Origin: Craspedostauros australis
Taxonomy: Eukaryota
DNA length: 64,000 bases
Assembly (NCBI GenBank): GCA_030167865.1
Contig: JALAGF010004627.1
Coordinates: 1-64,000 of the forward strand
Reading direction: 5' to 3'
Both the position numbers and the translations under genes were made by a program. This document shows, piece by piece, positions 22,111 to 61,000 of this stretch. A model generated the notes under the pieces. The model searched no databases. It was not told the DNA's origin and saw only the letters and a list, made by a program, of their open reading frames with translations. The stretch's first letter is position 1; every line of letters begins with the position of its first letter.

Positions 22111-22718
22111 GCTTTGGGAACATGCACGGCGCGTCGCAGGTCCCGCGGACGGATCGCAACCAACCCAATCCACCAGACCTCCGCAGCCTCGATTTGTTCT
22201 TTGTGCCTTGAGTTCTTGTGTGTGATGATGGCGACAGGGCACACAGACATCAAACTCTGACAACATGCAAAAAGAGGTGAAATTGTTTGGTGGCAGATTT
22301 TGGCGGGACTCGGCCACATGATTGACTGATTCTTAGTATTGGCAACCTGTGAACTAGACGCTCCATGGTACATGCGCTCTACTCTCCGCAGAGGAGATTG
22401 ATGTGCATCGCTGCTCATGCAATGACTGCAACGTTTCCAACAATCTACACATAGTACGAGTGCATACGTTCCTCAATTCTACTCTACGACTTATTCTACT
22501 CCGCGCGCCCATATGACTTTGCGACTTTGTCATGTCTGTCTTCATGATGAATGTGGACGACATGGAACGAGACTCCTCTGGAGGGAGCCATGCTTTGTCG
22601 CGGGCTGTGGGTGACGACACCCGAAATCACAACTTGGCTGTGAATGCTACAACCTAATGCTGGTAAATGCGAGTGCGGGACTGCTTGTCTCGTGCATCAG
22701 CTTGGCGCCTTGATGGGT

Positions 22719-40934: not shown

Positions 40935-41407
40935 GGTTTCTGTGATGTGGTCTGCAGGAATAGAATGGCTCAGAACGGATCAGAATGGAGTCGAGTTTCG
41001 TCGAGTGCAGCCAAGCAACAGATTTCGAGTCTGCTCGAAGCATTGTACGAATACCCTGGAGTGTGGATGCTGGTCACCTATCCATGCGAGTTTTCCGATG
41101 GATCTCGGAACGCTTGTGTGTTGTCCACCACTTCGATGTTTGGTTCTCACAGTTCCACCTCCTGAAATCCAGGAATGCCACGATGGGCCTTAAATCGTGT
41201 TGATTTCTACGGACATCCGTACGTTAATTTCGTTACCACACACAACTCTTGATTTGGGACGTCATTTACAACACTAGTTTTCACAAGCACTAATGGCATC
41301 ATTCGAGTCCACGAAACTCGAGAGGCTTCAGATGCTGTGGTTCCTCACTCGTTGATCGCCCAACCACAGAGACAGCCGCAATCAGAAGAACCGCAGCAAC
41401 GGCAGCA

Positions 41408-41696
41408 ATGGCAGCATTGGCAACAATGACACCAACAATGTGGTTGATGCATCAAAAGAGGATGATTGGTGTCATCTTCATCGCGTGCATGGTGGTGGCA
41501 ACGAACTCACTGTCATCACCATCCCTGTCATCTTCATTCCAACGCAGCAGCAGCAGCAGCAACGGGAATGAGAATCACCAACCAATACGGAAGAATGCCG
41601 TGATCGGCGGTGGCATCGCCGGTCTCGCCTTGGCGCATGCCTTCGAGAACAACAGCAATACCGACAGCATCCACACCAACAACGACAACGACAACG

Positions 41697-41763
<67 letters not shown>

Positions 41764-42338
41764 CGTCGCTTAGAAGGCATGATTCGAGGCCGAGCACATC
41801 CAGCAACAGATGCGACAGAAGATCGATGATGCCATGATCCCCACACACACCACAAGGCCCATCATCGATCGACTCATCGACAATGCCGATCGTTTCTTTG
41901 AGTTAGGGATCTACTTCCACAATCCCTTTACGCAATGGACCAAGGCGATGATGGCCACCAACGGAAATCGCAACCGCAATGGAAGCACCGGCGAACGCCA
42001 TGCCACAGTTTCTTGGACAGGACACCAATCAGTCCATCCAAGGCGCCTACTGTTAGGCCAACGCCATTCAGCAGTACACCATGTAGTACAATGAACAAGC
42101 CGATGGTGGGAACAACCTCGAAGGCCTCCTGCAGATAGAATACAAGGACAAGCGATGGTCCACCATCACGAGAATCATGGACATCACAGGTGTCACGACC
42201 AAGGCTGATTGGTCTGCTGGGGTATCTGGAGTCCTCGTCGGGACCGTTGGCCAAGTTCTGGGATGTGTTCTTCTTCACCATGGATAAGACGGGCGTTGCG
42301 AAGATGATCTTTTTGGATGCCGCAGTGCCGAGGGTATG
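41408..42338 (+). pseudogene. FAD monooxygenase pseudogene, copy A
   Basis: Homologous to 53632-55275. About 0.8 kb is deleted at an (AAC)n tract, TGG has become TAG at about 41771, the GD motif is deleted and there are frameshifts. Confidence 0.9.
41678..41764 (+). repeat. (AAC)n/(AACGAC)n microsatellite
   Basis: More than 20 consecutive AAC units. Confidence 0.95.
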
Positions 42339-42744
42339 AGAATGTATGGAGCAGTGTGAAATCGCGATTTGAAATCGTGATGCGGTACAGATAGGTTATG
42401 TGGATGGCTTTCGCTTGGTGTTGATGGACCAGCCATACTCGTACGATCCAGACATTCCATACTTCTCACAAACCACAACACGCATTCACAATCACAAACG
42501 GACACCTCCCAATCAATCAATTAACCAACCAATCAACCATCTCCCTTTTCCATCCTACTCGTACAACAACACACTCACATTCACCAGAGTATCAATGCTG
42601 TCTCCATGAGCCGTTCTAATTACTCGACCAGCAGAATACTCCAAGACAATCCAGGATTTCATCAATCATCGATGTACCTTTCCTTTTCACATTGCGGGCA
42701 GAAGCATCATCAACTCGGACGAGCCGATCCCCTCTCTTGTCATG

Positions 42745-44049
42745 TCATGCCCGTTTCAACATCTCACTGCCCTGCAGCAGAATGTTAAATGTCTCGTTCG
42801 TGGAACCCATTATACCCCGACGTTTGTTTGTTCTCATCAGCATCTCCCCAAACAGAGCCTGTGGCCGCGACCATGTTGGAAGGGAACACAGCACTGCTCT
42901 CACCTTGTTGCGATGATTTCGCCGCAAGATGCGTTCAACAAGCGCATCGTACCAATGGGCATGTTCGTTGGCACGCGGGCGTGGATCAATGTGGAGATAG
43001 GTGAGTTGGGAAGTTTCCTCCAAGGCTTGCTGAAGTACTTCCATTTGGGCCGAGAGGATCTCGGTCGGAACTTCAAACATGCCAGGATGCCCAACGACAC
43101 CGTATAGGAGAGATGACAAACCCTTGTTTCTCAGGAGCGATATCAATGTGTCGAACATGATCATCTGCTCTTGTCGCGATAACCCGGTACAAAAATTGCA
43201 AACCTGTAGCTTCTTCAGGTGTGATGCATTTGAAAGGAGTTTGATGATTGGGTCGATTTCTTGTTGTGGACAGATTTGTTCGGCGCTGCCGAAACAATAG
43301 AAACCTATGGTGAGCCTGTCGATGCGCTTGTTTGACCGGAATAGCTTTGCCAAGCTATCACAAGTGAAACGGGTGTCAACAAAGGATATTTCGGTGACGC
43401 TGCAATTCTTTGGAGACAGCCATCTGCACAAATCAGCGCCCCCATTGGCGAGCTCGCAGGAACTGAACCTTACACATTTCGAGTGTTGGGAGATGTTGAA
43501 CATGAGCTTGTCACAATCAACAAGATCACAAAAACTCAACTCCACATGATGTGTCACAAGAGGGATATTGTGGAGCTGCTTGATCTCCACGAACCATCGA
43601 TGCAAGCGAATGCCTTTGTCGAATGAAGATTTGTGTGGATGTTCGGCAGACAATTGAATTACGAAACGAATCGCTTGCTTGTCTTCTTCTCCGAATTGGT
43701 CATCGTTGCCAAATTCCAGATTCAGGGATAGGATGTGCATCTGCCCGCATCCCCTGCAACACGGATCGTTCAGTAGAACACGAGGTGATAAAGCAATGGG
43801 CTTGTGCCGCTTCGCCATTGATTCCAAGTCAGCAAAGGTGAATCCTGCTTCAATGGCCAAGTCCCAATATTCCATCCGCTTGGGTGTGACACTGTAGCAG
43901 TCGATGTGCTCTGCTGGTGGGTACTGCGGAGTGAACACGGTCTTCGGGACCCACCATTTTCCATGGAGTTGTTTCCAGAAAGTCTTGAAGTCTGGATCAT
44001 GGTTGATGTTGGCATTGGTGTTGGCGACGGCATCCATGTCGTGGTTCAT
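42745..44049 (-). CDS. LRR/RNI-like protein, paralog A (434 aa)
   Basis: Intact intronless ORF with LxxLxI/V-type repeats (IDRLTI, LKKLQV, LSSLLY, LTYLHI) and a C-terminal cap (LRRNHRNKVR..LP..P.AL). Confidence 0.8.
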   Translation of the reverse strand: MNHDMDAVANTNANINHDPDFKTFWKQLHGKWWVPKTVFTPQYPPAEHIDCYSVTPKRMEYWDLAIEAGFTFADLESMAKRHKPIALSPRVLLNDPCCRGCGQMHILSLNLEFGNDDQFGEEDKQAIRFVIQLSAEHPHKSSFDKGIRLHRWFVEIKQLHNIPLVTHHVELSFCDLVDCDKLMFNISQHSKCVRFSSCELANGGADLCRWLSPKNCSVTEISFVDTRFTCDSLAKLFRSNKRIDRLTIGFYCFGSAEQICPQQEIDPIIKLLSNASHLKKLQVCNFCTGLSRQEQMIMFDTLISLLRNKGLSSLLYGVVGHPGMFEVPTEILSAQMEVLQQALEETSQLTYLHIDPRPRANEHAHWYDALVERILRRNHRNKVRAVLCSLPTWSRPQALFGEMLMRTNKRRGIMGSTNETFNILLQGSEMLKRA

Positions 44050-44997
44050 CCTTTTCTTGTTGTCGCTGTTGCTGGTCGTTGCTGTTGGTGGTACAATCGT
44101 ACGAGTAGAGCTGGTAGAGTGCGTCGTCCCAAATCAGTTGCGCTTGGATGGCGATTATGAGCTCATCTGCTCAAGCTTACTGTCCTCCATTTCATGATCC
44201 TGTGCATTGATCACGAAGCAACATGTCGTCAGTCAACATGCTTTCATGGACTTGCGCAGTTCCACCCACGGTGTATGGTATGGTATAGTACGACCGTGGA
44301 CAGCCACATCACGATTCGAAGCTGGCTAGCTGGCCCACACGATACGACCTTCGATGGTGCCCAACTTGGCCACGCTGTGCAGTTGCGCCTCTTCATGTGA
44401 TACCATTGTTTGTGTATCATGAGTAGGCACATCCTCTGTGATGGTCTTGGGGAGTCGACCACGATACTGTTATATTATACTCCGATCGATACAGTTCTTC
44501 GGCAGTTGCATGTCATCGAACGACTACCATGGGCGGACCCACGATGTGAAGAATCCACGATGTGAAGGAATCACCACGATGTCTTCTTCGGTCGGCATCA
44601 GAGAGGCGTTTCTCACGTTTTGTTGCGAGGATGACGACGATGACGATGTTGGTGACACCACTCGTGTTTCAATCGACAACAAACGTATCCAGGACTCATC
44701 TCGCCTCACTCAATCACTGCGAACTCTGTGGCGATGACGATGGCCATGGTGGTGCTGCAGACATCGTCGTAGAATGCTGATACAGATCGTCACAACCGCA
44801 ACACTCACATGATGATCACCGTTGCCATCAAGTATCTATTCACAGAGCATGCCAATGCTCCGTCTCTCCCTCTCTCTCTATTTCTAGAGAGACTTCGAAC
44901 GATGCCGGCTGGTTGACTTGGTTCCTCACTCATTGATCGCCCAACCACAGAGACAGCCACAACCAGAAGGATCACAGCAACGGCAGCATTGGCAGCA

Positions 44998-45099
44998 ATG
45001 ACACCAACGACGTGATTGATGCATCAAAAGAGGATGATTGGTGCCATCTGCATCGCGTGCATGTTGGTGGCAACGAACTCACTGTCATCACCATCCCCG
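44998..45099 (+). pseudogene. FAD monooxygenase 5' remnant, copy B
   Basis: Matches the first ~100 nt of the intact copy, has TGA at 45013, and homology stops at 45099. Confidence 0.85.
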
Positions 45100-45437
45100 A
45101 CACTTTTCTTCCATCGTGAATTGAGAACCACCGACGGCCATTTCCTTTGACAGGCGCAACAATCGCAGCAACGACACCATCACCAACATCCACCACATTG
45201 TTGTATCCCATCGCATCAGCCCATTGCCTCAGTATGATCACTGGAGAGAGAGAGATCAGATCCACCACTGGACATTGGACATTGGATACTGGATACTGCG
45301 CCATCAGCAATCACGTTTGTCGCAAAAGGCCTTCCATTGGACATTCAACATTGCGCGATTGGAGGATTGAACGAAGCAACAGAGCAGATCATTCCCAAAA
45401 CAACACAATACAAGGCAACAGAAGGCAACACAAATCG

Positions 45438-47007
45438 ATGGAAGACAACAGATTCCCGTTCACCAGCAAGGCTTCACGGTCGTCCTCCTCCACGCCTGGC
45501 ATTGAACGCAAGACCGGTCACCAGTACGATCGCAACTCTGCGCCATCACCAAGCTCCATGTCGTCATCGGCAGCATCATCGCCCACCGGCTACAGCTCCG
45601 CCTACACCTCCAAGTACATGGACGACCTGGGCAGCAAGCAGCAGGCTGTGTCGGCGACGACAATGAGGCAGAGTTCTACATGCACTCGCAGCAGAACTTC
45701 GACGCCGACATGATTGACTCCACCAGCGCGAGGAGGGTGGTGGACAGCGACGAGGAGCCCTTCGACGAAGGCCTGGACGATGACATTGACAGCGACAACA
45801 GCGACGACAATGAAGGTGCCGACGCCAACAGCCGCAGTCGCAGCCACAGTCGCAACGTCAGCGCGGGTGCCAGCGACAACACGCAGCAGATAGATGATGA
45901 CATCGAGAGCCAGTGTTCCGATGAGGAGGCGGGCGACAAGATGACCGACAAGACGACCGATGGAGGCTTCGACGAGTTCACAGACGAGGACGACTCCATG
46001 CGAGACGACTCCTTTCGTGGCGAATTCCGTTCCACATCCTGCCAGCCTCCACGCACGATCGGAACATCTCCCGACACCAGCAACACCAACACCGCGCCGT
46101 CCAGGACGTCCCCGCCAGCCAGAGGCAGCCCAACACCTCCTCCAACGGGGGCTCGTCCTTCGGCTTCTCCTCCGCCAAGAGGATGTCTTTCATCTGCCAG
46201 GAAGGTGGACTGTAGACCGTCATCGAAGGCGAGGAGGGTGACGAGACGGAGCGACCATCCACCAGAACTGTCAACAAACGCAAGCCAGGCGAATTCGGTG
46301 CCCATTCCAATGGGGATTCCGGACTCTTCTCCTCCATGGTCTCCGCCAAAAACGATGGGACCCAGCGCATGGCCGCCACCTCCAATTCATCCAACAGCAA
46401 CCACGGCAACCAGGACTCCACCAACTCCCTTCCCAAGGAATCCAACCACAGCAATGTGGACATGGACATGGACGGTGAGGATCCAGCTTCCACAAAAAAC
46501 CCAGCGTCAACCTACATCTCCACATCCACCAACCGCCTCATGAGCGGCAGTTCCGCTTCAGCCGGAGTGGTCTTGGACAAAAGCCAATCCACTCATTCCG
46601 CCATCCTCCTCAACAAGACCAACGGCACCAACGAGGACATGCCCACCCAGCTCGTCTCGCGCACCAACTCCATCGAAATATCTTTCACTCCCATGATGCC
46701 CGCAACTGCTCCGGCGCAAACCATCACTCAAGGTCCACCAGCCAAACAGCTCCCGCGAAAAGAACCCACCGGACCCTCCAAGGGATCCAGCAAGCATCTT
46801 GATCCGAAGAACGTGGTCGAGCAGGACACCGGCAACACCACAAGCATGCATTCCGTCGACATTGAGGCGCAGACGGCCACCACAACCACAAAGCCGACGT
46901 TGCAGGAACCAGCACCTAGCAAAGGCAACATCATGATCCCCATCGTCATCGTGGCTGTCCTCATCATCGGTGGTGGCATTGCAGCAGGCGTCGTGCTGGC
47001 GGGCTGA
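45438..47007 (+). pseudogene. Disrupted gene for an acidic disordered protein ending in a single TM helix, inside unit B
   Basis: Coding-like segments in shifting frames (shift near 45650 and another within ~46020-46150), in-frame TAG at 46213-46215, and a stop immediately after IVIVAVLIIGGGIAAGVVLAG. Confidence 0.65.
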
Positions 47008-47464
47008 AACAGCAGTTTTGTTTTTGCAACTCTCGCTGCCGACGCCTCTGACTTTCGTTGACCGCAAGTCAAACATGCCGATCGCTGGAGATGGAGTATC
47101 CCAAATAGTAGTATCGTAGTAGTATTATCGTGACTCGTTTTGCCTTTTGGTGTTGACGTTGCGTGGTTTCTCGTCATCGCAGATGCATCACTGTTGCGAT
47201 CTTGGCAGGAACACGCACGGGCATGGACATGGGTGCTACATACACACACTCGACTCGCTTGCAGTCAGTGGAGTTAGACGAGAGTAGTTGTCCTACAGTT
47301 GTTTAAGGCAATGCAGCATTGTATAATATCAATCATCGACACACCTTTCTTTGCTTTGTGAACACCGAGCGCTTAACAGAAACTCCGTCGCTTTCACGAG
47401 TGTGGCCAGTTGGCTGTCAATTTCATTGCGCTGGCAGAAGGCTGATGATCTTATCACGGCAGCG

Positions 47465-48820
47465 CTATTTATTTTGTCGTTGCTGATCATGAAGCTCGGC
47501 GCGACGATCGTCCCATGTCTGTTTCAACATGTCACTGCACTGCAGCAGAATGTGAAAAGTCTCGTTCGTGATACCCAATGGATCACATAAACCCCAACGT
47601 TTGATTGTTCTCATCAGCATCTTCCCAAACAGGGCCTGTGGCCGTGACCATGTTGGAAGGGAATGCAGCACTGCTCTCACCTTGTTGCGATGATTTCGCC
47701 GCAAGATGCGTTCAACAAGTGCATAGTACCAATCGGCATATTCGCAAGACGGGCTTGGGTACATGCTGAAATAGGTGAGTTGGGTAGTCTGCTCCAAGGC
47801 TTGCTCAAGTGCTTCCATTCGTGCCAAGAGGGTCTCACGCGGATGCTCAAACTCCTTGGGATTCGAGCAGTCGAAGTATGTGAGAGATGACAAGCTCTTG
47901 TTTCCCAGGAGCGATATCAATGCGTCGAACCTTGTCTCCTGATCTGGCTCCGATGACCGGCCCCAGATAGGGGAAACCTTTAGCTTCTTCAGGTGTGATG
48001 CATCTAAAAGGAGTTTGATGATCTGGTCGACTTCTTGTGGTGAGTAGGTTCGTTGTCGGTTGTAGTCCTCAAAGCAAGTGATGTTAAGCTTGTTGATGCG
48101 CTTGTTTGACTGGAATAGATTTGCCAAGTTATCACAAGTGATACGGGTGTCCAAAAAGGTTACTTTGGTGATGCTGCAATTGTTTGGAGACAGCCATCTG
48201 CACAAATCAGCGCCCCCATTGGCGAGCTCACAGGAATCAAACTTAACCCACTTCGAGTTTTGGGAGATGTTGAACATGAGCTTGTCGCAATCAACAAGAT
48301 CACATGAACCCAAATGCACACCATGTGTCGCAGGGATATCGTGGAGCTGTTTCATCTCCACGAAGTATTGAGTCAAGCGGATGCCGTCGGCCCATGGAGA
48401 TTCGGGTGGGTGTTCGGCAGCCAATCGAAGTACGAAGCGAATCGCTTGCTTGTCTTCTTCTCCAAATTGGTCATCGTCGCCGAATTCCAGATACAGGGAT
48501 CGAATGCGCATCCGCCCGCATGCCGGGTAAAGCCAACCGCTCAGTAGAACATGAGGTGATAAAGCAAGGTGCTTGTGCTGCCGCTGCATCGATTTCAAGT
48601 CAGCAAAGGTGAATCCTGCTTCGATGGCCATGTCCCAGTGTTCCATCCGCTTGGGTGTGACACTGTAGCAGTCGATCTGCTTTGCTCGTGGGGACTGCAC
48701 ATTGAACACGGTCTTTGGTGACAGCTCTTTTCCGTGGAGTTGTTTCCAGAAAGTCTTGAAGTCTGGATCATGGTCACTGTTGGCATTGGTGTTGGTGACA
48801 TCATCCATGTTGCGGTTCAT
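47465..48820 (-). CDS. LRR/RNI-like protein, paralog B (451 aa)
   Basis: Intact ORF, colinear paralog of A, with a C-terminal extension read from the foreign segment. Confidence 0.8.
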   Translation of the reverse strand: MNRNMDDVTNTNANSDHDPDFKTFWKQLHGKELSPKTVFNVQSPRAKQIDCYSVTPKRMEHWDMAIEAGFTFADLKSMQRQHKHLALSPHVLLSGWLYPACGRMRIRSLYLEFGDDDQFGEEDKQAIRFVLRLAAEHPPESPWADGIRLTQYFVEMKQLHDIPATHGVHLGSCDLVDCDKLMFNISQNSKWVKFDSCELANGGADLCRWLSPNNCSITKVTFLDTRITCDNLANLFQSNKRINKLNITCFEDYNRQRTYSPQEVDQIIKLLLDASHLKKLKVSPIWGRSSEPDQETRFDALISLLGNKSLSSLTYFDCSNPKEFEHPRETLLARMEALEQALEQTTQLTYFSMYPSPSCEYADWYYALVERILRRNHRNKVRAVLHSLPTWSRPQALFGKMLMRTIKRWGLCDPLGITNETFHILLQCSDMLKQTWDDRRAELHDQQRQNK

Positions 48821-49722
48821 CCTGCTATGTGTTGTCGATGCTGTTTATGGTGGGGGCTGTCGATAGTGTTGGTTGCACAGCAGCAGAGCAGGCAGAGTAT
48901 GTGGTCCCAAAGCAGTTGTGCTTGGATGGTGATTGTGAGCTCATCTGCTCGAGTTTGCTGTCTTCCATTTCATGATCCTGTGCATTGATCACGAAGCAAC
49001 GTGTCGTCAGTCAACACGCCTGCATGGACTTGCGCAGTTCCACCACTGCGTATGGTGTGGTATGATACGACTGTGGATAGCCACATCATGATCCGAAGCT
49101 GGCTAGCTCGCTCGCTCGCACGATACGGCCTTCGATGGTGCCCAACTTGGCCACGCTGCGCAGTTGCGCCTCTTCATGTGATACCATTGTTTGTGTATCA
49201 TGAGTAGGCACATCCTCTGTGATGGTCTTGGGGAGTCGACCACGATACTGTTATATTATACTCCGATCGATACAGTTCTTCGGCAGTTGCATGTCATCGA
49301 ACGACTACCATGGGCGGACCCACGATGTGAAGAATCCACGATGTGAAGGAATCACCACGATGTCTTCTTCGGTCGGCATCAGAGAGGCGTTTCTCACGTT
49401 TTGTTGCGAGGATGACGACGATGACGATGTTGGTGACACCACTCGTGTTTCAATCGACAACAAACGTATCCAGGACTCATCTCGCCTCACTCAATCACTG
49501 CGGACTCTGTGGCGAATGATCAACCATCAGTCTTCCGATGAACACGGAACGTGTGCGAGACAGGTCATTTTGTGGCGATGGCAATGACGATGACGATGAC
49601 GATGGTTGTCGTGGTGGTGCTACAGACATCGCTACAGAATACTGACGCAGATCACCACAACTGCAACGCTCACATGATGATCACCGTTGCCATCAAGTAT
49701 CTATTCACAGAGCATGCCAATG

Positions 49723-49758
<36 letters not shown>

Positions 49759-49878
49759 TTCTAGAGAGACTTCGAACAATGCCAGCTTGTTGAGTTGCCT
49801 AGTTCCTCACCCATTGATCGCGCAACCACAGAGACACCCACAACCAGAAGAATCACAGCAACGGCAGCAATGGCATCA

Positions 49879-51171
49879 ATGACACCAACGACGTGATCGA
49901 TGCATCAAAAGAAGATGATTGGTGCCATCTGCATCGCGTGCATGTTGGTGGCGACGAACTCACTATCATCACCATCCCCGTCGTCCCCGTCGTCCCCGTC
50001 ATCCTCGCTCCAATGCAGCAGTAACAGCAGCAGCAATGGGAATGGGAATGGGAATGAGAATCACCAACCAATACGGAAGATCGCAATCATCGGCGGTGGC
50101 ATCGCCGGTCTCTCCTTGGCGCATGCCTTCGACAACAACAACGGCAACGATGCACACAACATTCATGTGACATGCTTCGATGCGAGACCAGAATTGGGCG
50201 TCGTCGCAGGTGCGGGTGTGCAGCTCAACAGCGGCATGGCAGTGCTGAAGCAGATCTATCCGTCCCTGCAGCATGCGGTGGCCGATGCCGCGCTGCCGTT
50301 GACGACCGTGCGATCCAAGACCACCAACTGGATCTCATCCAACAAGGAGTTCCAACTGCTGCACTTCAATCTCAGACAGATGATCATGGATGCAGAGCGA
50401 CACCACAACGAAAGCGCTGATCCAGGAGGAAGGCGAGGTCATGGCGTACCATGCTCCATCATGCGAAGAGCGTTGCAGGAGGCGCTGCTGGAGGAGCTGA
50501 AGACGACGCCCGTGCATCTTGGCAAGCAGGTGATGAATGTGGAATGTGACAAGACGGAGGCGCGAGATGCCATCCATCTCGGGTTTGAAGATGGAACGAG
50601 AGAAGAGCCGTACTGGTACGATATGGTGGTGGGCTGTGATGGTGTCAACAGCGTCATCGAGCAGTACATCAACGGCGATGCGCGGTCGCCATCAGACAAT
50701 CAACGCAATTCACCAGCTGTGAACTCTGGTATCCGCATCCGGTACGTCATCCAGGATGTCGCCAAAGAGGACAGCGACAGCAACAGTGGCAGCAGCAGCG
50801 ACGACGGAACGAACAAAATGACACAAGATTCCGTCTTGCAGCAATTCTTTGGCAACGGCGCCTACTGCCTCACTGGCAACTACGGCCAGGTTATCAAACA
50901 CGACACCACCAGAGACTGCTTCATCATCTTCCGCAACGCCTTGCCCTTCTCCAAGCCCGCCGTCAGAAAGGACGATGAGAACGTCGCTTGGAAGGCATCA
51001 TCCGAGGCCGAACGCATCCAGCAACAGGTACGACAGCAGATCGATGATGCCACCAACCACAACACGCAATCACAATCACCCAGCCATCTCCCTTGTTCCA
51101 TCCTACTCATACTCGTCACAACACACTCACATGCACCAGAGTATCAATACTATCTTCATGAGACGTTCTAA
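49879..51171 (+). pseudogene. FAD monooxygenase copy C, 3'-truncated
   Basis: TGA at 49894, but open again from ATG 49900. Compensating frameshifts at about 50395-50455. A deletion at about 51052 fuses the gene to 3' flank sequence and removes the GDAAH motif. Confidence 0.85.
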
Positions 51172-51296
51172 GTACTCCACGAGCAGAGTATTCCAAAGCT
51201 ATGTCGGATCGCATCAACCATCGATGTGTCTTTCTTTTCCACACAACAAGCAGAAGCACCATCAACTTGGACGAGCCGATCCGCTCTCTTGTCATC

Positions 51297-52613
51297 TCAT
51301 GTCCGCTTCAACATCTCACTGCCCTGCAACAGAAGATGGAAAGTCTCGTTCATGGGATCCATGGGACCCATTGCATGCATTGTACCACGACGTTTGCTTG
51401 TTCTCGTCAGCATCTGCCCAAACAGAGCCAGCGGCCGCGGCCATGTTGGAAGGGAACACAGCGCTGCTCTCATCTCGTTGTGATAATTTCGCCGCAAGAT
51501 ACGTTTAACAAGTGTCTTGTACACACGAGCATGTTCGTTGGGCAGGGATAGACCATTGTGGAGATAGGTGAGATTGGTAGTTTCCTCCAAGGCTTGCTGA
51601 AGTGCTTCCATTTGTGCCGAGAGGGTCTCAGGCGGAACCTCAAACATGCCGGGATTCCAGAAGCCTCCGTATCTGAGATATGACAAGCTCTTGTTTCCCA
51701 GGAGCGATATCAACGCATCGAACCTTGTCATCTGCCCTTGTCGCGATACTCTGTTCCAAACATCGGCAACCCCAAGCTTCTTCAGGTGTGATGCATCTGA
51801 AAGGAGTTTGATGATCTGCTCGGTTTCTTGTGAATGGATGTGTTGGGCGCCGTGGACCAGACCGAGATTGATCTTGAGCTTGTTGATGCGCTTGTTTGAC
51901 TGGAATAGCTTTGCCAAGCTATCACAAGTGATACGGGTGCCAAAAAATGATACTTCGGTGACGCTGCAATTGTTTGGAGACAGCCATCTGCACAAATCAG
52001 CGCCCCCATTGGCGAGCTCACAGGAATCAAACTTAACCCACTTCGAGTTTTGGGAGATGTTGAACATGAGCTTGTCGCAATCAACAAGATCACATGAACC
52101 CAAATGCACATGATGTGTCACAAGAGGGATATCGTGGAGCTGCTTCATCTCCACGAAGCATTGACGCAAGTGGATGCCTTCGTCGAATACAGATTTGGGT
52201 GGGTATTTGGCAGCCAATCGAAGTACGAAGCGAATCGCTTGCTTGTCTTCTTCTCCGAATTGGTCATCGTCGCCGAATTCCAGATTCAGGGACCGAATAC
52301 GCATCCGCCTATGCCTCTCGCCAAGCCAATCGCTCAGTAGAACACGAGGTGATAAAGCAACGTTCTTGTGCCGCCGCTTCATCGATTCCAAGTCAGCAAA
52401 GGTGAATCCTGCTTCAATGGCCAAGTCCCAATATTCCATCCGCTTGGGTGTGACACTGTAGCAGTAGATCTGTTCTGCGTGTGGGTACTGCGGAGCGAAC
52501 ACGGTCTTCGGTGGCAGCTCTTTTTCATGGAGTTGTTTCCAGAAAGTCTTGAAGTCTGGATCATGGTCACTGTTGGCATTGGTGTTGGCGTCACCATGCA
52601 TGTTGAAAGCCAT
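51297..52613 (-). CDS. LRR/RNI-like protein, paralog C (438 aa)
   Basis: Intact ORF, colinear paralog of A, B and D. Confidence 0.8.
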   Translation of the reverse strand: MAFNMHGDANTNANSDHDPDFKTFWKQLHEKELPPKTVFAPQYPHAEQIYCYSVTPKRMEYWDLAIEAGFTFADLESMKRRHKNVALSPRVLLSDWLGERHRRMRIRSLNLEFGDDDQFGEEDKQAIRFVLRLAAKYPPKSVFDEGIHLRQCFVEMKQLHDIPLVTHHVHLGSCDLVDCDKLMFNISQNSKWVKFDSCELANGGADLCRWLSPNNCSVTEVSFFGTRITCDSLAKLFQSNKRINKLKINLGLVHGAQHIHSQETEQIIKLLSDASHLKKLGVADVWNRVSRQGQMTRFDALISLLGNKSLSYLRYGGFWNPGMFEVPPETLSAQMEALQQALEETTNLTYLHNGLSLPNEHARVYKTLVKRILRRNYHNEMRAALCSLPTWPRPLALFGQMLTRTSKRRGTMHAMGPMDPMNETFHLLLQGSEMLKRT

Positions 52614-53631
52614 CCTGCTATGTGTTGTCGATGCTGTTTATGGTGGGGGCTGTCGATAGTGTTGGTTGCACAACAGGTAGAGCTGGTAGAGTATGCGGTC
52701 CCAATCAGTTGCGCTTGGATGGCGATTATGAGCTCATCTGCTCAAGCTTACTGTCCTCCATTTCATGATCCTGTGCATTGATCACGAAGCAACATGTCGT
52801 CAGTCAACATGCTTTCATGGACTTGCGCAGTTCCACCCACGGTGTATGGTATGGTATAGTACGACCGTGGACAGCCACATCACGATTCGAAGCTGGCTAG
52901 CTGGCCCACACGATACGACCTTCGATGATGCCCAACTTGGCCACACTGCGGAGTTGTGCTTCTTCATGTGATACCATTGTTTGTGTAACATGAGTAGGTA
53001 CATCCCTCTGTACTGGTCTTGGGGAGTCGACCACGATATTGTTATATTATACTCCGATCGATACAGTTCTTCGGCAGTTGGATGTTATCGAACGACTGCA
53101 AAGGTGGATCCACGATGTGACGAATCCACGATGTGAAGGAATCCACCATGATGACTTCTTTGGTGGACGTCAGAGGCGTTTCTCAGGTTTTGTCGAGAGG
53201 ATGACGACGATGACGATGTTGGTGACACCACTCGTGTTTCAATCGACAACAAACGTATCCAGGACTCATCTCGCCTCACCAAACCATCCGGAACTCAGTG
53301 GTGAATGAATCAATCATCAGTCCGATGATCAACATGGAGCGCGTGCGAGATGATTCGTTGCGTGGCGATGACGATGACGGCGGTGGTGGCGCTGCAGAAA
53401 TCGCTGTGAAATACGTGTACTGATACAGATCACCACAACCGCAACGCTCGCCGATGATCACTGTCACCATCAAGTATCTATTCACAGAGCATACCAATAC
53501 TCTGCCTCTCTCTCTCTCTCTAGAGACTTCGAACACTGTCGGCGTTTTGACTTGGTTCCTCGCTCATTGATCACCCAACCACAGAGACAGCCGCAATCAG
53601 AAGAATCACAACAACGGCAGCATCAGCAACA

Positions 53632-55275
53632 ATGACTCCAACAACGTGGTTGATGCATCAAAAGAGGATGGTTGGTGCCATCTGCATTGCGTGCATCGTG
53701 GTAACAACGAACTCGCTGTCATCACCATCCCCGCCATCTTCACTCCAACGCAGCAGCAGCAGCAACGGGAATGAGAATGAAAATCACCAACCAATACGAA
53801 AGATCGCAGTCATCGGCGGTGGCATCGCCGGTCTCTCCTTGGCGCATGCCTTCGAGAACAACAACGGCAACAATGCACACAACATTCATGTGACATGCTT
53901 CGATGCGAGACCAGAATTGGACGTCGTCGCCGGTGCGGGTGTGCAGCTCAACGGCGGCATGGCGGTGCTGAAGCAGATCTCTCCGTCCCTGCAGCGTGCG
54001 GTGGCCGATGCCGCACTGCCGTTGACGACCGTGCGATCCAAGACCACCAACTGGATCTCATCCAACGAGGAGTTCCAGCTGCTGCAGTTCAACCTCAGAC
54101 AGATGATCATGGATGCGGGCGGCGACACGACGAAGGCGCTGATCCAGGAGGACGGCGAAGTCATGGCCTACTCCATCATGCGGGGAGCGTTGCAGGAAGT
54201 GCTGCTGGAGGAGCTGAAGACGACGCCCGTGCATCTCGGCAAGAAGGTGGTGGATGTGGAATGTCAAAAGACGGAGTTGCGAGATGCCATCTATCTCACA
54301 TTTCAGGACGGAACGAGGGAAGGGCCGTACGATATGGTGGTGGGCTGTGATGGTGTCAACAGCGTCGTCAAGCAGTACATCAACGGTAATATGCGGTCGC
54401 CATCAGACAATCAACGCAATTCGCCAGCTGTGTACTCTGGTATCCGCATCCGGTACGCCGTCCAGGACGTCGCCAAAGAGGACAGCGACAGCAACAGTGG
54501 CAGCAGCAGCGACAACGGAATGAACAAACCTGCACAAGATTCCATCCTGCAGCAACACTTTGGCAACGGCGCCTACTGCCTTACTGGAAACTACGGTAAC
54601 GGTATCAAGCGTGGCACCACCCGATGCTGCTTCATCATATTCCGCAACGCCTTGCCCTTCTCCAAGCCTGCCGTCAGTGCGGATGATGAGAACGTTGCTT
54701 GGAAGGTATCATCCGAGGCCGAGCGCATCCAGCAGCAGATGCAACAGCAGATCGACGATGCCAAGATCCCCACACACACCACAAGGCCCATCATCGACAA
54801 TGCCGATCGTTTCTTTGAGTTAGGGATCTACTTCCACAATCCCTTTACGCGATGGACCAAGGCGATGGTGGCCACCGACGGAAATCGCAACCGCAATGGA
54901 AGCACCGGCGCAGACAAGGCTGCCGTCCTGACTGTCTGCGGTGATGCGGCGCACGCCATGCCACCGTTCCTGGGACAGGGCGCCAATCAGGCCATCCAAG
55001 ACGCCTACTGTCTGGCCAACGCCATTCGCCAATACAATATGCAGTACGATGAACAAGCCGATGGCGGGAACAGACTCGAAGATATTCTGCAGACAGAATA
55101 CAAAGACAAGCGATGGTCCACCACCACGGGCATCACAGCCAAGGCTGGACTGCTGGGGTACCTGGAGGCCTCGTCAGGGCCGTTGGCCAAGTTCCGGGAT
55201 GTGTTCTTCTTCACCATGGACAAGACGGGCGTTGCGAAGAAGATCTTTCTGGATGCTGCCGTTCCGAGGATATGA
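53632..55275 (+). CDS. Group A FAD-dependent monooxygenase (zeaxanthin epoxidase/salicylate hydroxylase-like), the only intact copy
   Basis: GGGIAG, VGCDGVNS and GDAAHAMPPFLGQGANQAIQDA motifs. Signal peptide plus Ser-rich transit-like leader. Confidence 0.92.
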   Translation: MTPTTWLMHQKRMVGAICIACIVVTTNSLSSPSPPSSLQRSSSSNGNENENHQPIRKIAVIGGGIAGLSLAHAFENNNGNNAHNIHVTCFDARPELDVVAGAGVQLNGGMAVLKQISPSLQRAVADAALPLTTVRSKTTNWISSNEEFQLLQFNLRQMIMDAGGDTTKALIQEDGEVMAYSIMRGALQEVLLEELKTTPVHLGKKVVDVECQKTELRDAIYLTFQDGTREGPYDMVVGCDGVNSVVKQYINGNMRSPSDNQRNSPAVYSGIRIRYAVQDVAKEDSDSNSGSSSDNGMNKPAQDSILQQHFGNGAYCLTGNYGNGIKRGTTRCCFIIFRNALPFSKPAVSADDENVAWKVSSEAERIQQQMQQQIDDAKIPTHTTRPIIDNADRFFELGIYFHNPFTRWTKAMVATDGNRNRNGSTGADKAAVLTVCGDAAHAMPPFLGQGANQAIQDAYCLANAIRQYNMQYDEQADGGNRLEDILQTEYKDKRWSTTTGITAKAGLLGYLEASSGPLAKFRDVFFFTMDKTGVAKKIFLDAAVPRI

Positions 55276-55575
55276 GAATGTATGGAACGGTGTGAAATCA
55301 CGATGTGATGCAGATAGGTTCCGTGGACGGCTTTCGCTTTCTGTTAATAGACATTCCATACTTCTCGCCAACCAAAACGCACAGTCACAATCAATCAACC
55401 AACCCCCCTTTCCATCATACTTGTACAACAACACACTCACATTCACCAGAGTATCAATACTGTCTTCATGCGCTGTTCTAATTACTCGCCAAGCAGAGTT
55501 GTCGATGCCTTTCTTTTCCACACAGCAAGCAGAAGCACCATCAACTTGGACGAGCCGATCCGCTCTCCTGTCATC

Positions 55576-56904
55576 TCATGTCCGCTTCAACATCTCACTG
55601 CCCTGCAGCAGAATGTTAAATGTCTCGTTCGTGGAACCCATTAGACCCATGAGATCCATTTCAGCCATTCTACTCCGATGTTTGCTTGTTCTCATCAGCA
55701 TCTCCCCAAACAGAGCCCGTGGCCGCGACCATGTTGGAAGGGAGCACAGCACTGCTCTCGCCTTGTTGCGATGATTTCGCCGCAAGATGCGTTCAACAAG
55801 CGCATCGTACCAATGCTCATGTTCTTTGGGAAGGCTTGGAGAAACGTGGAGATAGGTGAGTTGGGTAGTCTGCTCCAAGGCTTGCTGAAGTGCTTCCATT
55901 TGTGCCGAGAGGATCTCAGGCGGAACTTCCAATATGTCAGGATCCCCAAAGTGACAGTATGTGAGATATGTCAAGCCCTTGTTTCCCAGAAGCGATATCA
56001 ACGCATCGAACCTTGTATCCTGTTGTTGTCGCGATAAACTGTTCCACATACCGTAAATCCTGAGCTTCTTCAGGTGTGATACATCTGAAAGGAGTTGGGT
56101 GATCTGGTCGATTTCTTGTTGTGAGGAGATTCGTTGTCCGTTGCCGTCCCAATTGGAAGTCATGTTGAGCTTGTTGATGCGCTTGTTTGACTGGAATAGC
56201 TTTGCCAAGTTATCGCAAGTGATACGGGTGTCAACAAATGATACTTCGGTGATGCTGCAATTGTTTGGAGACAGCCATCTGCACAAATCAGCTCCCCCAT
56301 CGGCAAGCTTGCGGTGACAAAACTTAACACATTTCGAGTTTTGGGAGATGTTGAACATGAGCTTGTCGCAATCAACAAGATCACATGAATACAAAGCCAC
56401 ACAATGTGCCACAAGAGGGATATGATGGAGCTGCTTCATCTCTACGAAGCGTTGAGGCAAGTGGATGTATTCATCGAATGGAGATTTGAGTGGATGTTCG
56501 GCAGCCAATCGAAGTACGAAGCGAATCGCTTGCTTGTCTTCTTCTCCGAAATGGTCATAGCTGCCGAATTCCAGATTCAGGGATCGAATGCGCATCCGCC
56601 CGCAGCCCCCGTGAAATGAATCGGTCAGTAGAACACGAGGTGATAAAGCAATGTATCTGTGCCACAAATCCATCGATTTCAAGTCATCAAAAGTGAATCC
56701 AGCTTCGATGGCCATGTCCCAGTGTTCCATCCGCTTGGGTGTGACACTATAGCAGTTGATCTGCTCTAGTGGATGACTCTGCACATTGAACACGGTCTTC
56801 TGGTCCCGGCATTTCTGATGGAGTTGTTTCCAGAAAGTCTTGAAGTCTGGATCATGATCGCTGTTGATATTGATGTTGGCGACAGCATCCATGTTGTGGT
56901 TCAT
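55576..56904 (-). CDS. LRR/RNI-like protein, paralog D (~442 aa)
   Basis: Intact ORF. Start placed at MNHNMDAV by analogy with paralog A. Confidence 0.8.
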   Translation of the reverse strand: MNHNMDAVANININSDHDPDFKTFWKQLHQKCRDQKTVFNVQSHPLEQINCYSVTPKRMEHWDMAIEAGFTFDDLKSMDLWHRYIALSPRVLLTDSFHGGCGRMRIRSLNLEFGSYDHFGEEDKQAIRFVLRLAAEHPLKSPFDEYIHLPQRFVEMKQLHHIPLVAHCVALYSCDLVDCDKLMFNISQNSKCVKFCHRKLADGGADLCRWLSPNNCSITEVSFVDTRITCDNLAKLFQSNKRINKLNMTSNWDGNGQRISSQQEIDQITQLLSDVSHLKKLRIYGMWNSLSRQQQDTRFDALISLLGNKGLTYLTYCHFGDPDILEVPPEILSAQMEALQQALEQTTQLTYLHVSPSLPKEHEHWYDALVERILRRNHRNKARAVLCSLPTWSRPRALFGEMLMRTSKHRSRMAEMDLMGLMGSTNETFNILLQGSEMLKRT

Positions 56905-58010
56905 CCTTTTCTTGTCGTTGCTGATTGTTGTTGCTTGTTGCCGTTGGTGGTACGATCGTACGAGTAGAGCAGGCAGAGCTGGTGGAGCAGGTAGAGTATG
57001 TAGTCCCAAATCAGTTGCGCTTGGATGGCGATTATGAGCTCATCTGCTCGAGTTTGCTGTCTTCCATTTCATGATCCTGTGCATTGATCACGAAGCAACG
57101 TGTCGTCAGTCAACACGCCTGCATGGACTTGTGCAGTTCCACCAAGGTGTATGGTGTGGTTCTGTGCGGTGTGGTATGACCGTGGACAGCCACATCACGA
57201 TCCGAAGGTAGCTCGCTTGCTCGCTCGCACGATACGATCTTCGATGATGCCCAACTTGGCCATGCTGCGGAGTTGTGCCTCTTCATGTGATACCATAGTT
57301 TGTGTAATATGAGTACAGTACATCCCTCTGTGATGGTCTTGGGGGAGTCAACCATTATACCATACGAATGCACACTATGTACTTCGGCAGTTGGATGTCA
57401 TCGAACGACTGTAATGGGCGGATCCACGATGTGAAGGAATCACCACGATGACTTCTTCAGTGGACATCGAAGGCGTTTCTTGAGTTTTGTGGTGAGGATG
57501 ATGATGGCGACGATGACGACGATGATGACACCACTCGTGTTTCAATCGACAACAAACGTATCCAGGACTCATCTCGCCTCACCCAACCGTCGGTCCATTT
57601 TGTGACGATGGTGATGGTGACGATGGTGATGCTACGAATCGCGCCGCGGAATACTGATACAGATCGTCACAACTGCAATGCTCGCTGATGATCACCGTCG
57701 CCATCAAATATCTATTCACAGAGTACATCAATACTCTCTCTCTACAGAGAGACAGAAAGACAGTGGCCTCGTCTCGACTCTACAACCCTCTTCCTCGCAA
57801 GAGGCAAAACGAGCATCCACCAGCAAAAGTTGCCGATCCATGCATCCATCCTTACGAGTATACATCGTGAACTAGCATTAGAGTGTTATTGGTGCCCGGA
57901 ACGTACCTACGATACCGCCAACACCGCGTCAAATATGGCACATACATTTTACACAACGATCACCCTTGATCAGCTGGTTCCCCTGCCTGTTATTCCAATC
58001 TCGTCGTGTG

Positions 58011-61000
58011 TTACTCCTCCAACGGCGGGCAGGCGTCGTCTATTGTGCGGGTGGTGCCCGGGAGCGGAGATGGCATGGGATAGTCGTATTTCTGATGACA
58101 AGCGCACACAACTGGCCGATTGGCGGACCCACAGGTGTACGCGATCTCGCAGAGGGCACGCGTGAAATCGTGGCACCCAATGAAGTCGTTGAAGTCGGCG
58201 TTGCACCGGATGTTTTGGAAGTTGTTGGCCACGTCGTCGAATCTTGGCACAAGGTCGCGATCGGGGATGATGTTGAATGTGTACCGGTCTAGACTTTCTG
58301 GCCTGACGGGAGGATCGAATGACAAGCCGGAGATCCTTGCATTAGGTCCCGAAATTGCGACTGCTGGGACCTTCGCCTGGGCACCCGTGATGATCGACAG
58401 CCCACCGCCAAGTGAGTGACCGGTGACCTGGACGTGGTCGAACTTGCCGCTCTCCTTCAATTCCTCGACGAACGGTGTGATGATTCGGTAGAAGGACACG
58501 TCTCCGACAGCTGATGATTCCACTCCGTTCATGAGGAGGACGAGTTCTGGGAGAGTGCGAAAGAAGGCAAAGCGGAAGAAAGGTAAATGGGAAACGCGAG
58601 GAGGGACAGGGTGAGATGGACATGGGATGGCGACAACGACAACGACATGGCAACACGACAACAATAAAACAAGATCCAGTGCGCTTCAAACGAGCAACAG
58701 AGTGGTTTTGAGTGCTGTCGCATCAGGAATATGACCACAACTTCGAGCAAGATTTCGAGCAGCGTTTCCCAGCAGAATGTTCCAGTCGCATTCAGCATGC
58801 TTACCATCCAGGATAGGCGTCCATATTTCACCAAGTGGGAGAATTCCTCGCAGCACCTGCACTAGCATGGCCGCTGACCAAAGCTGGCTATCCGCGAGAA
58901 GATCGAACGCATTCTGCGTGCCGCGGATGCTCACGATGGCGAGGTTGCTTTCAGGGACCGTGAAGAGCTTGAAGTTCGCAGCTGAGTCCACGTTGTTTGT
59001 GCGCTCTCTGTATTCGCTGACCATGGTCGTATCGAGTTTGACACCCTTGTTTGGGAACCAGCCATCCAATTCGTCTTGGACGAGGTCGAGCTTGTTGTAC
59101 GCCAGGCCAGCCAAGAAGCTGTGACGAAGCAGTTGTAGAATCCCGCCACGTGTTGGTGGTGTGCGGCAAGTAGCAGGCAATAGCAGCAGGGGCGGCAGTA
59201 AAGGAAAAAGTGAAAAGTGTGTGAGAAATCCATCGTCACTCTGCAGGCGCATGATCGCAACACCGTCATTCTTTGCACCTTGGGCACAAAAGCATGAGTA
59301 GAGGCACTTACATGTAGTCGCCGATGGTGGAATTGGTACCAAATACTTCATTGATTTCTGGGAGGCTGCAGGTTGGGTACCTCATGTCATCGGGCTGTGG
59401 TGGATAGTAAAAGTCGTTCAGGTACGTGTGCTGGAGGTCGTTGGTGGATTCGGAGCTGGTGCCGATGGACAGGAGGAAGATTCCGACAAAGATCAGACCA
59501 AAGCCCCACAACAATCGAGACCATACGATGCGGCTCTTGTCGTGCGTGATCTTCTTCACCAGATTCGATAAGCGGGATGTGTTGGCCCATCTCTCTTCTG
59601 CCGTGTCGCCGTCGACCAGGTCCATGTTACCTCTCTCTTCGATCGCGACAGCCACGTTCATGTAGTGGCGAAGGCTTGAGTTGAGTGCGACGAATACAAA
59701 GAGTCCAGCGATCGCCCAGTTCCGAAGGTATATGAGTGTGGCAAATGGATAGATGAAGTAGAAGATGTGCTCCAATGCGAACAAGATCCATGCCATGCGC
59801 TCCGTAACCTTGGTGACTCGGTTGTAGTGAGAGACCAGGTAGATTCTGGATATTGGTTGTGTATGGTCGAGGACATGCCATTGCATTGAGAGAGAATGGA
59901 AATAGAAAAGGGATGCGGCGATAGCGAAAATATAATACAGCAATACAGTACAGTCGAGTAGAACAGTGTTCATGAGGTGAGAATGGTTGAACAGCATGGA
60001 GCGCGATCAATACACGGTGGGTGTGCTGTGCCATGACAACTTCCGCAAACATCAACGTCTGCTTCGATCTGGAGACGTCATACATGTGCCCATCAGACAT
60101 CAGACGTACTACTCATCAACCGCGTTGGAGTAGAATATGCCGACTCATTTTCGCCGCAAACTTACCCTTCGCTTGGCTTGGAACCCAGCTTGTCCCATTT
60201 GCGTTTGGAGTCGCCACGCGGCGCAGAGTAAGGTCCGCTGGTTTGCCTCATGCCATCTTCTGCGATGAACGAAACAGCAGGATCGACCTGCGGGGTGGTC
60301 TCCCGCGCGAATGTGACACCGGCCGCTTGCTCCTTCTTTGGTTTGGCTTCCGTCTGGTCCTCTTCCAGGAATTCCCTGGCGCTGGAGTACTCTTTGGTGT
60401 CCTCCGGATCCATTCGAGATTCCTGGTGGCTTGGACCGCCGAAGCGTTGATCGGCCTGTGATTCCGCCATCTCAGGATCATCCTGATTTGCCGCGGCTTC
60501 GATATCATCTCTGCCGTCACCGCGAGAACCTTCGTTCAGAACGATATCAATCGATTTGAGCTGAGCGCCATTGCCTTCGTTGTCATGATCGGGGTCGTCA
60601 CCGTTCTTGTCTTTGTCCTTGATGCCCGTGCGTGCCTGGATGTAGTCTTTGGCCACCTTGGAAAGCTGCCGGGTGCGCTTAAGGACCTTCCACGCCGCCA
60701 GGGCCAGGACGATCGTCGCGACTATGATGAGCGGAAGTTCGGTGTCCAACCAGACGAGGACGGCGATGCACAACCACAAGATGAGGAGGGTTCCGAGGAG
60801 AGAGCACGCTATGTTGCTCTTGATCTGAGAACGGGTGAGGGCACCCGGGCCGTCGATGATGGCGATGTAACGCGAATTGGCGGGTCTGCAAAAGATCCTC
60901 TCCAGTCCCCATGTGGACTTGGTGAGGAAGGGACGGTAGTCCTGGACATCGTCGATTCGAAAAAGTCTTTTGGGCGGATCGAGGGGTTCGAAGAGCTTGA

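Follow-up and report, generated by a model that had tools for sequence, protein, structure and literature searches.

The solvent-exposed residues of the xxLxLxx motif in leucine-rich repeats (LRRs) are hypervariable in the plant gene clusters that encode nucleotide-binding LRR (NLR) proteins and Cf/receptor-like proteins (RLPs). Here we describe an array of four paralogous LRR genes, p1 to p4, in a stretch of 64,000 nucleotides of contig JALAGF010004627.1 (assembly GCA_030167865.1; this whole stretch is called the window, and all positions are counted in it). Tandem paralogs, exchange between units, and a ratio of nonsynonymous to synonymous substitution rates (omega, or dN/dS) above 1 at strand and ascending-loop positions place the cluster in the R-gene-like birth-and-death mode of evolution; as in plant resistance (R) gene clusters, the selected residues are strand-exposed or lie in adjacent loops, and the hydrophobic scaffold is kept. 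However, the window paralogs are without NB-ARC, TIR or coiled-coil (CC) domains, signal peptide, membrane span or kinase, and their predicted repeats are of the ribonuclease-inhibitor (RI) type with helices and 24-38 residues, in contrast to the 24-residue plant-specific type. No sequence homology to plant R-gene products was detectable with Pfam or in a search of cluster representatives. We consider it fairly probable that the four genes encode soluble RI-type LRR proteins, held in an array that evolves by birth and death and by conversion under diversifying selection on the strand and ascending-loop surface, and that they form a repertoire of recognition or adaptor proteins.

The LRR domains of ribonuclease inhibitor, RanGAP and the NLRP/NOD proteins belong to the same predicted fold class as the window paralogs (Z 11.8-13.3 over about 250-265 residues), and ribonuclease inhibitor and RanGAP share with them a soluble, cytoplasmic, LRR-only architecture. 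In contrast to these proteins, with which identity is only 13-16% in structural alignments, the window family consists of a handful of sequences, its last four repeats have enlarged variable loops, and it has no GAP (GTPase-activating protein), NACHT or partner domain. Lamprey variable lymphocyte receptors are LRR-only proteins, secreted or membrane-anchored, that are somatically assembled by a gene-conversion-like exchange of segments. The window paralogs, as putative LRR-only recognition proteins with conversion-like exchange, resemble them, but the array gives no indication of somatic change.

Among stramenopiles, the available text of two brown-alga studies describes LRR-ROCO and NB-ARC-TPR proteins as candidate immune receptors with fast-evolving LRR modules (PMC3341825, PMC11378527). 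The likeness lies in the stramenopile lineage and in fast-evolving LRR modules proposed as pathogen receptors; as far as that text goes, however, the brown-alga candidates diversify by exon shuffling and carry a ROC-COR GTPase, whereas the window genes are single-exon and LRR-only. For diatoms, the parts of the literature at hand report tandemly expanded LRR gene families in Seminavis robusta (PMC7335047), a Ka:Ks above 1 for two receptor-like LRR genes under sexual regulation in Pseudo-nitzschia multistriata (PMC5485032), the mating-type-biased genes MRP2 and MRM2, which encode transmembrane LRR proteins (PMC6261938), and LRR enrichment in Nitzschia putrida (PMC9054022). These cases probably concern the same kind of organism as the window and likewise show tandem duplication and, for some LRR genes, positive selection, but the examples described in those parts are transmembrane receptor-like proteins. 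The literature as searched, with incomplete full-text coverage, contained neither a family of soluble, LRR-only proteins from a diatom nor a mapping of selected sites onto the face of diatom LRRs.

Organization of the LRR gene array

The four genes were located as open reading frames (ORFs) on the minus strand:

42745..44049, minus strand: LRR paralog p1, 434 amino acids (aa), single exon, intact (ORF list, alignment, p3 tblastn match over residues 1-438)
47465..48820, minus strand: LRR paralog p2, 451 aa, intact (ORF list, alignment, tblastn)
51297..52613, minus strand: LRR paralog p3, 438 aa, intact; the copy used for structure modelling
55576..56904, minus strand: LRR paralog p4, 442 aa counted from the conserved ATG; the open frame extends to a TTG at 57009

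A tblastn search with p3 against the whole 64-kb window showed that p1-p4 are the sole copies. Their protein identity is 66-71%, with a mean column identity of 79% in the alignment, and p2 has a C-terminal extension of 16 residues that is also present in a metagenome relative, P0002. The units lie in tandem with start-to-start spacings of about 4.77, 3.79 and 4.29 kb, and the original unit consisted of an LRR gene and a divergently oriented gene for a monooxygenase dependent on flavin adenine dinucleotide (FAD).

A first inspection of the letters (the sequence-only reading) had described four intact paralogs in this region, with near-invariant scaffold blocks and three sites that differ radically just after beta-strand motifs. 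All of this held: the six blocks that it quoted are invariant alignment columns, and the three hypervariable sites were found as quoted at columns 245-258, 280-289 and 314-321, with the p3 residues checked by translation. Variability is broader than these three sites, and also affects a C-terminal patch (columns 351-361) and N-terminal columns 30-45, 79-99 and 142-172. In p3 the four main patches are as follows:

51834..51881, minus strand: patch 1, beta-strand KLKIN and the following loop, columns 245-260 (translation)
51747..51779, minus strand: patch 2, strand KLGVA and loop, columns 280-290; selected sites 282, 284-286 and 288
51648..51680, minus strand: patch 3, strand YLRY and loop, columns 313-323; selected sites 315, 317, 318, 320 and 323
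51537..51566, minus strand: patch 4, strand YLHN and loop, columns 351-361; selected sites 354, 355, 357 and 361

At the places homologous to patch 1, p1, p2 and p4 carry unrelated residues. The windowed proportion of nonsynonymous differences (pN) in this patch is 0.35-0.45, against a proportion of synonymous differences (pS) of 0.13-0.28, and columns 249-252, 254, 256, 258 and 260 have a posterior of at least 0.8 for the fast class of the site models described below.

Predicted structure of the LRR paralogs

An AlphaFold2 model of p3, built from a six-sequence alignment, had a mean predicted local distance difference test score (pLDDT) of 73.8 and a predicted template modelling score (pTM) of 0.74, and showed short strands alternating with helices in at least nine alternations. 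Strands start at columns 147, 168, 192, 220, 245, 280, 313 and 351, with a spacing of 21-38. Three repeats have the canonical RI-like length (24-28 residues), and the last four are enlarged to 33-38 residues through insertions in the strand-to-helix loop. The conserved hydrophobic positions follow an xLxΦx pattern, and LxxN/S closes the helices.

The model was compared with known structures, as the sequence-only reading had proposed, and the matches were to LRR domains. The best matches in a Foldseek search of the Protein Data Bank (PDB) were the LRR domains of tropomodulin/leiomodin, NLRP, NLRC4 and TIR1, five of them at E <= 0.001. VIA-align against 48,161 chains gave 98 chains with Z >= 8, and among the 50 entries listed the best Z was 14.2, covering model residues 24-388. 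The matches listed include CARMIL (13.8), NLRP9 (13.3), NLRP3 (12.8), RanGAP (12.1) and ribonuclease inhibitor (11.8), together with NLRP1/14, NOD2, Skp2, TIR1, COI1, internalins and designed LRRs; unnamed axonemal-complex chains make up seven of the best 50 rows, rank 1 included. On this model the domain is an LRR solenoid of the RI type with about 9-11 irregular repeats and N- and C-terminal caps. The LRR solenoid of the earlier description was thus borne out by AlphaFold2, Foldseek and VIA-align, the predicted type being that of ribonuclease inhibitor rather than that of plant LRRs.

Gene conversion between units

The non-coding DNA next to the genes had been described as nearly identical between units. 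This is the case on the upstream side; the flanks on the downstream side differ for the most part (39-92%). When the four units were aligned with MAFFT, p1 and p2 were 100% identical over about 300 nt upstream of the ATG, and p1 and p3 over about 200 nt, against 69-97% per 100-nt window in the coding regions. The upstream region of p4 is less alike (76-95% in its conserved part). The homogenised DNA has these positions:

44108..44738, unstranded: non-coding block on the upstream side of unit 1, sharing homogenised sequence with units 2 and 3 (repeat families D7 and D10-D13; windows of 100% identity)
48886-49519, 52679-53308 and 56985-57611: counterparts of the unit 1 upstream block

Informative sites change in runs among the three possible groupings of the copies, a mosaic tree signal, and clustering of like patterns as strong as that observed was reached in 0/10000 permutations. 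In a GENECONV-style analysis, the agreement run of p1 and p2 in the upstream region was 51 variable sites long and that of p1 and p3 was 33, and p2 and p3 agreed over 25 variable sites within the coding region; none of these runs was reached in 5000 permutations each. The permutation-tested runs and the clustering together indicate that the units actively exchange sequence, by gene conversion or unequal exchange.

Two ORFs on the plus strand inside the homogenised block (44438-44737 and 49219-49587; identical, 99-122 aa) were rejected as genes, the frame being lost in unit 3 (53039-53308), and in all probability they do not code for protein. The block may in part be a 5' untranslated region or a shared divergent promoter, because contigs of a run called X1, whose RNA nature is a guess, reach about 450 nt upstream of the ATGs. 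An Rfam scan of 41000-58500 gave no match.

Positive selection on the strand and ascending-loop surface

Relatives were sought in metagenome DNA, where 140 stretches matched the search pattern and none was confirmed by tblastn; this left the four window copies for the codon analysis. By the Nei-Gojobori method (NG86), pairwise dS was 0.15-0.21 and dN/dS 0.85-1.26, and pairwise maximum-likelihood omega, corrected for a kappa of about 3, was 1.20-1.81. The one-ratio model M0 gave a whole-gene omega of 1.30-1.41; IQ-TREE with GY+F3X4 gave 1.44 and the same best tree, (p1,(p2,p3),p4), and this agreement validates our own implementation at the M0 level. The site models strongly favoured a positive class on all three topologies, including in the M7 versus M8 comparison suggested beforehand: twice the log-likelihood difference (2dlnL) was 79-88 for M1a/M2a and 82-89 for M7/M8, with an omega of about 6 in 21-22% of sites.

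Since uneven synonymous divergence caused by conversion can mimic such a signal, we fitted a dual-rate model with three classes, each having its own synonymous rate, against a null in which all omega <= 1. The alternative was better than the null by a 2dlnL of 14.2-20.7, with an omega of 3.0-3.6 in 22-26% of sites. In 40 parametric simulations of the null, with mosaic topologies that mimic recombination, the maximum was 8.37, and 0/40 reached 14.2. The simulated tail was heavier than chi-square, so the nominal dual-rate p-values are too optimistic, and the empirical bound for the statistic is p below about 0.025.

The codons were also partitioned a priori by secondary structure, with separate branch lengths per partition, three topologies and two codon-frequency models:

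Strand and strand-to-helix loop: 147 codons, omega 1.64-1.86, p versus omega = 1 of 6e-4 to 6e-3
Helix and helix-to-strand loop: 222 codons, omega about 1.2, p versus omega = 1 of 0.2-0.34

Sites were then mapped on the secondary-structure classes, the posterior for the fast class being taken as the minimum over the three topologies. The posterior was at least 0.8 at 49 sites and at least 0.95 at 14. At 0.8, the fast sites made up 33/148 of the strand and ascending-loop positions versus 13/224 of the helix and descending-loop positions (Fisher P = 3.6e-6); at 0.95, the numbers were 9/148 versus 5/224 (P = 0.09). The sequence-only reading had held that scattered variable residues or a non-solenoid fold would speak against it, and neither was seen: fast sites concentrate at strand and ascending-loop positions of the modelled solenoid. 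Along the strands, selected residues and conserved residues of the hydrophobic core alternate (columns 168, 170 and 172 flank V169 and L171, column 282 lies between L281 and V283, and column 315 between L314 and Y316). Alternating strand residues face the concave side in LRR geometry. The remaining selected sites lie in the loops right after the strands and in the N-terminal repeats. The residues over-represented at the selected sites are Gly (3.6-fold, P = 9e-7), Tyr (3.6-fold), Cys and Trp. The relative P0002 has a residue absent from all four window copies at 10/27 of the selected sites versus 18/199 of the others (P = 4e-4); the same contrast in a second relative, P0001, was weaker (27/45 versus 152/366, P = 0.025) and was not significant among variable columns.

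Several points weigh against positive selection on an LRR surface. The codon analyses compare four window copies which recombine, and the site models are our own implementation, with a cross-check by IQ-TREE at M0 only. The dual-rate null explains most of the M1a/M2a signal (lnL -3712 versus -3750). NG86 with local dS gave 1.35 for strands (confidence interval (CI) 0.69-3.0) and 1.25 for ascending loops (CI 0.80-2.0), neither of them significant. In loops pS is 0.25 versus 0.135 in helices (about 1.9-fold), so the hypervariability is partly that of older, less-converted sequence. On the structural side, the variable loops have low confidence in the p3 model (pLDDT 52-68), and the structural classes depend on a model from six sequences. 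Pfam found no family in p1-p3 and, at E <= 1, nothing from the LRR families in p1-p4, and a profile search of PDB sequences gave no LRR chain at E <= 10; membership in the LRR class is therefore assigned from fold and repeat pattern only.

Part of this would be expected under relaxed constraint combined with mosaic age, in which the loops tolerate any residue (omega about 1) and conversion resets some blocks and spares others, with no positive selection and no repertoire. The conversion tracts are demonstrable, the helix partition also has an omega of about 1.2, every omega fitted under the dual-rate null is 1 or close to it, a third of the sites evolving about 7-fold faster, and both the NG86 intervals and the raised pS in the variable loops fit such a history. 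However, the omega of strand plus loop was significantly above 1 on three topologies and with two codon-frequency models, and the dual-rate statistic was equalled by none of the simulations of exactly such a null. Moreover, the variable patches are in step with the register of the repeats and not with arbitrary boundaries of tracts, and whole-gene omega is above 1. We regard relaxed constraint as unlikely. A dN/dS of 1 or less at the variable sites, named beforehand as telling against diversification, was not found outright: the partition, site-class and dual-rate models all gave values above 1, but the NG86 intervals with local dS include 1.

Relatives, domain composition and localization

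Only four relatives were found among 1,835,955,588 cluster representatives: the full-length protein P0001 (479 aa, 46% identity) and three fragments at 69%. Word-indexed searches recovered two of the four, and a profile search with six sequences gave the same two proteins only. The search of representatives had no length filter, so there is no fused form among them at E <= 0.001. A feature search of the Atlas with a protein language model returned diatom hypothetical proteins and LRR_TMOD-LMOD/LRR_6 clusters with a score of 0.94; recognition in this search is below benchmark, and we take the result as a lead only. The LRR paralogs appear to belong to a small family confined to one lineage, probably that of a diatom.

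Hydropathy predicted neither a signal peptide nor a membrane span in the LRR paralogs, in agreement with the first inspection: the maximum 19-residue Kyte-Doolittle mean is 0.75-1.27 in p1-p4, and the first 30 residues average -1.0 to -1.5. Pfam found no kinase domain and no STAND NTPase (NB-ARC/NACHT) domain in p1-p4, and since the modelled LRR fold covers residues 24-388 of 438, there is no room for an NTPase domain of about 300 residues. The ROC GTPase and COR domains had no Pfam match, and the protein is too short for an LRR-ROCO. For the F-box, Pfam gave none at E <= 1; the first 20 residues of p3 are unmodelled (pLDDT below 50), where a divergent motif is possible. On the model and these searches, the paralogs are soluble LRR-only proteins of the RI class. 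Chance matches were set aside: a SAWADEE match in p4 (Pfam, E = 0.033, 14.7 bits versus a cut-off of 28) was sub-threshold, and PDB-sequence matches to LuxR/HapR regulators, SipB and an odorant receptor were insignificant (E >= 0.06).

The fast evolution might be driven by reproductive or mating recognition, or by a sperm flagellar role, rather than by defence. As far as the published text at hand goes, this is consistent with the sex-regulated Pseudo-nitzschia multistriata LRR genes with Ka:Ks above 1 (PMC5485032), with the mating-type bias of the LRR genes MRP2 and MRM2 (PMC6261938) and with the enrichment of high-piN/piS genes among the sex-induced genes of Seminavis robusta (PMC7335047); the axonemal-complex chains, rank 1 among them, in 7 of the best 50 structural rows point the same way. 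But the diatom cases, in the text seen, are transmembrane, whereas the window paralogs are without signal peptide or span, no sequence relationship to the published cases was found, and the likeness of LRR folds is generic. A reproductive role therefore seems quite improbable to us.

In another possibility, the paralogs would be substrate adaptors of a ubiquitin ligase or a similar complex, the invariant terminal blocks binding the core and the variable face picking the targets. F-box-LRR and PRAME-like families offer the comparison. The architecture of long invariant terminal blocks and variable repeats would suit it, Skp2, TIR1, COI1, FBXL17, KDM2B and LRR1-CUL2 are among the structural matches listed (Z 9.8-12.8), and one Atlas row names a PRAME C-terminal domain cluster (score 0.88). 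However, these ligase-type matches do not stand above the LRRs of NLR proteins, RanGAP and ribonuclease inhibitor, and Pfam at E <= 1 gave no adaptor motif, whether F-box, BC-box or another. We judge an adaptor function of this kind very unlikely.

Open reading frames and expression

Each copy carries 91-148 substitutions over 1293 nt. When as many were placed at random on the consensus, the frame stayed open in 0.5-3.2% of 20000 trials per copy, and the product over the four copies gives a chance of about 2e-8 that all frames are open by accident. Insertions and deletions in the coding regions are multiples of three, and those upstream have lengths of 1, 2, 4 and more. The X1 contigs, of putative RNA, cover all four LRR genes, with a binned depth of 55-449; coverage of the FAD-monooxygenase gene bodies was 0-2.3, and 44504-46255 had none. 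This cover gives a hint that the LRR genes are expressed, and a lack of expression, also named beforehand as telling against the sequence-only reading, was not encountered outright. Contigs of two further runs, X2 and X3, contact low-complexity repeats only.

On the array (41000-58500) there were 622 X1 pieces, 183 of them at >=99% likeness, 195 at 95-99% and 244 at 90-95%. The 439 pieces at 90-99% hint at allelic or copy-number polymorphism. Several contigs pass from one paralog to another at corresponding places, such as 51358 to 55683 or 51522 to 55832, and the X1 variants are either further paralogs or divergent alleles beyond the four, or assembly chimeras.

That the four genes are decaying pseudogenes, open by accident, would agree with a whole-gene omega near or above 1 and with the decay of the neighbouring gene, but is highly improbable given the chance of four open frames, the in-frame insertions and deletions, the long invariant blocks, the open frames of relatives at 46-69% identity, and the X1 contigs that lie over all four genes and not over the FAD-monooxygenase bodies.

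The FAD-monooxygenase neighbour and other features

The second gene of the unit is represented by four copies:

53632..55275, plus strand: intact FAD-dependent monooxygenase, 547 aa (Pfam FAD_binding_3, E = 1.4e-12; tblastn)
49879..51012, plus strand: truncated FAD-monooxygenase copy, residues 1-364 of 547, the C-terminal third missing (tblastn)
41432..42336, plus strand: decayed FAD-monooxygenase copy, pieces in three frames, residues 87-354 deleted (tblastn)
45016..45117, plus strand: FAD-monooxygenase remnant, residues 7-40 only (tblastn)

The FAD-monooxygenase gene is thus intact in 1/4 units, versus 4/4 for the LRR gene. The pair of intact and truncated copies, analysed with the same code as the LRR genes, gave an omega of 0.44, which is below 1 at P = 6.6e-5. 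The locus holds its own control: purifying selection or decay marks the enzyme gene next door, and the LRR genes are open and driven apart.

The N-terminus of the FAD-monooxygenase is hydrophobic and signal-like, and an AAC-type repeat at 41665-41772 within the decayed copy codes for about 25 consecutive Asn. Between units 1 and 2, the expected place of the FAD gene body (45147-47007) holds overlapping low-complexity ORFs rich in Ser, Thr, Pro and Asp (45680-46543 and 46336-47007, plus strand). No Pfam family matches these ORFs. The one at 46336-47007 terminates in a hydrophobic stretch, and it could encode a mucin-like membrane protein; an X1 contig of 325 nt matches 46529-46853 with 19 differences. 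Elsewhere in the window, long runs of ankyrin repeats make up nearly the whole of an 854-aa protein at 22719-25283 on the minus strand (Pfam Ank_2, E = 1e-115), and long ORFs without a Pfam family lie at 9037-12666, 14824-17190, 18805-22317 and 60162-62033.

Discussion

Support for the structural and evolutionary interpretation of the array as diversifying RI-type LRR proteins is moderate. A unit of two genes, an LRR gene with its divergent FAD monooxygenase, would have been duplicated to give four copies. Conversion would keep homogenising the common upstream DNA and parts of the scaffold, and positive selection would act on the outward-facing alternate strand residues and the strand-to-helix loops, maintaining a distinct surface in each paralog. 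The variable face may bind diverse or fast-changing ligands, different for each paralog. Selection would then remove the conversions that erase these differences, and this would also account for the raised local dS. At both termini, the invariant blocks may dock to a constant, common partner. The array would in this way provide a small repertoire of recognition or adaptor proteins, with pathogen or virus products, mating or self/non-self cues, and substrates of ligase complexes as candidate ligands. For molecular evolution, the array offers a clean small case, from outside plants and animals, in which conversion acts jointly with diversifying selection.

We know of no classical NLR receptors of the plant and animal kind in diatoms. 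As a tentative and rather doubtful extension, the array could belong to a previously unrecognised intracellular recognition system of diatoms, with soluble LRR-only sensors that have no NLR-type NTPase, whose specificities would be reshuffled by conversion and diversified by viruses, intracellular parasites or mating partners, and which would signal through the invariant terminal blocks to a common partner. If this were true, the X1 variants at 90-99% likeness would be further members of the repertoire or highly polymorphic alleles. A soluble LRR-only family with the signature of a recognition surface is a concrete candidate for the recognition of viruses, parasites, bacteria or mates by diatoms.

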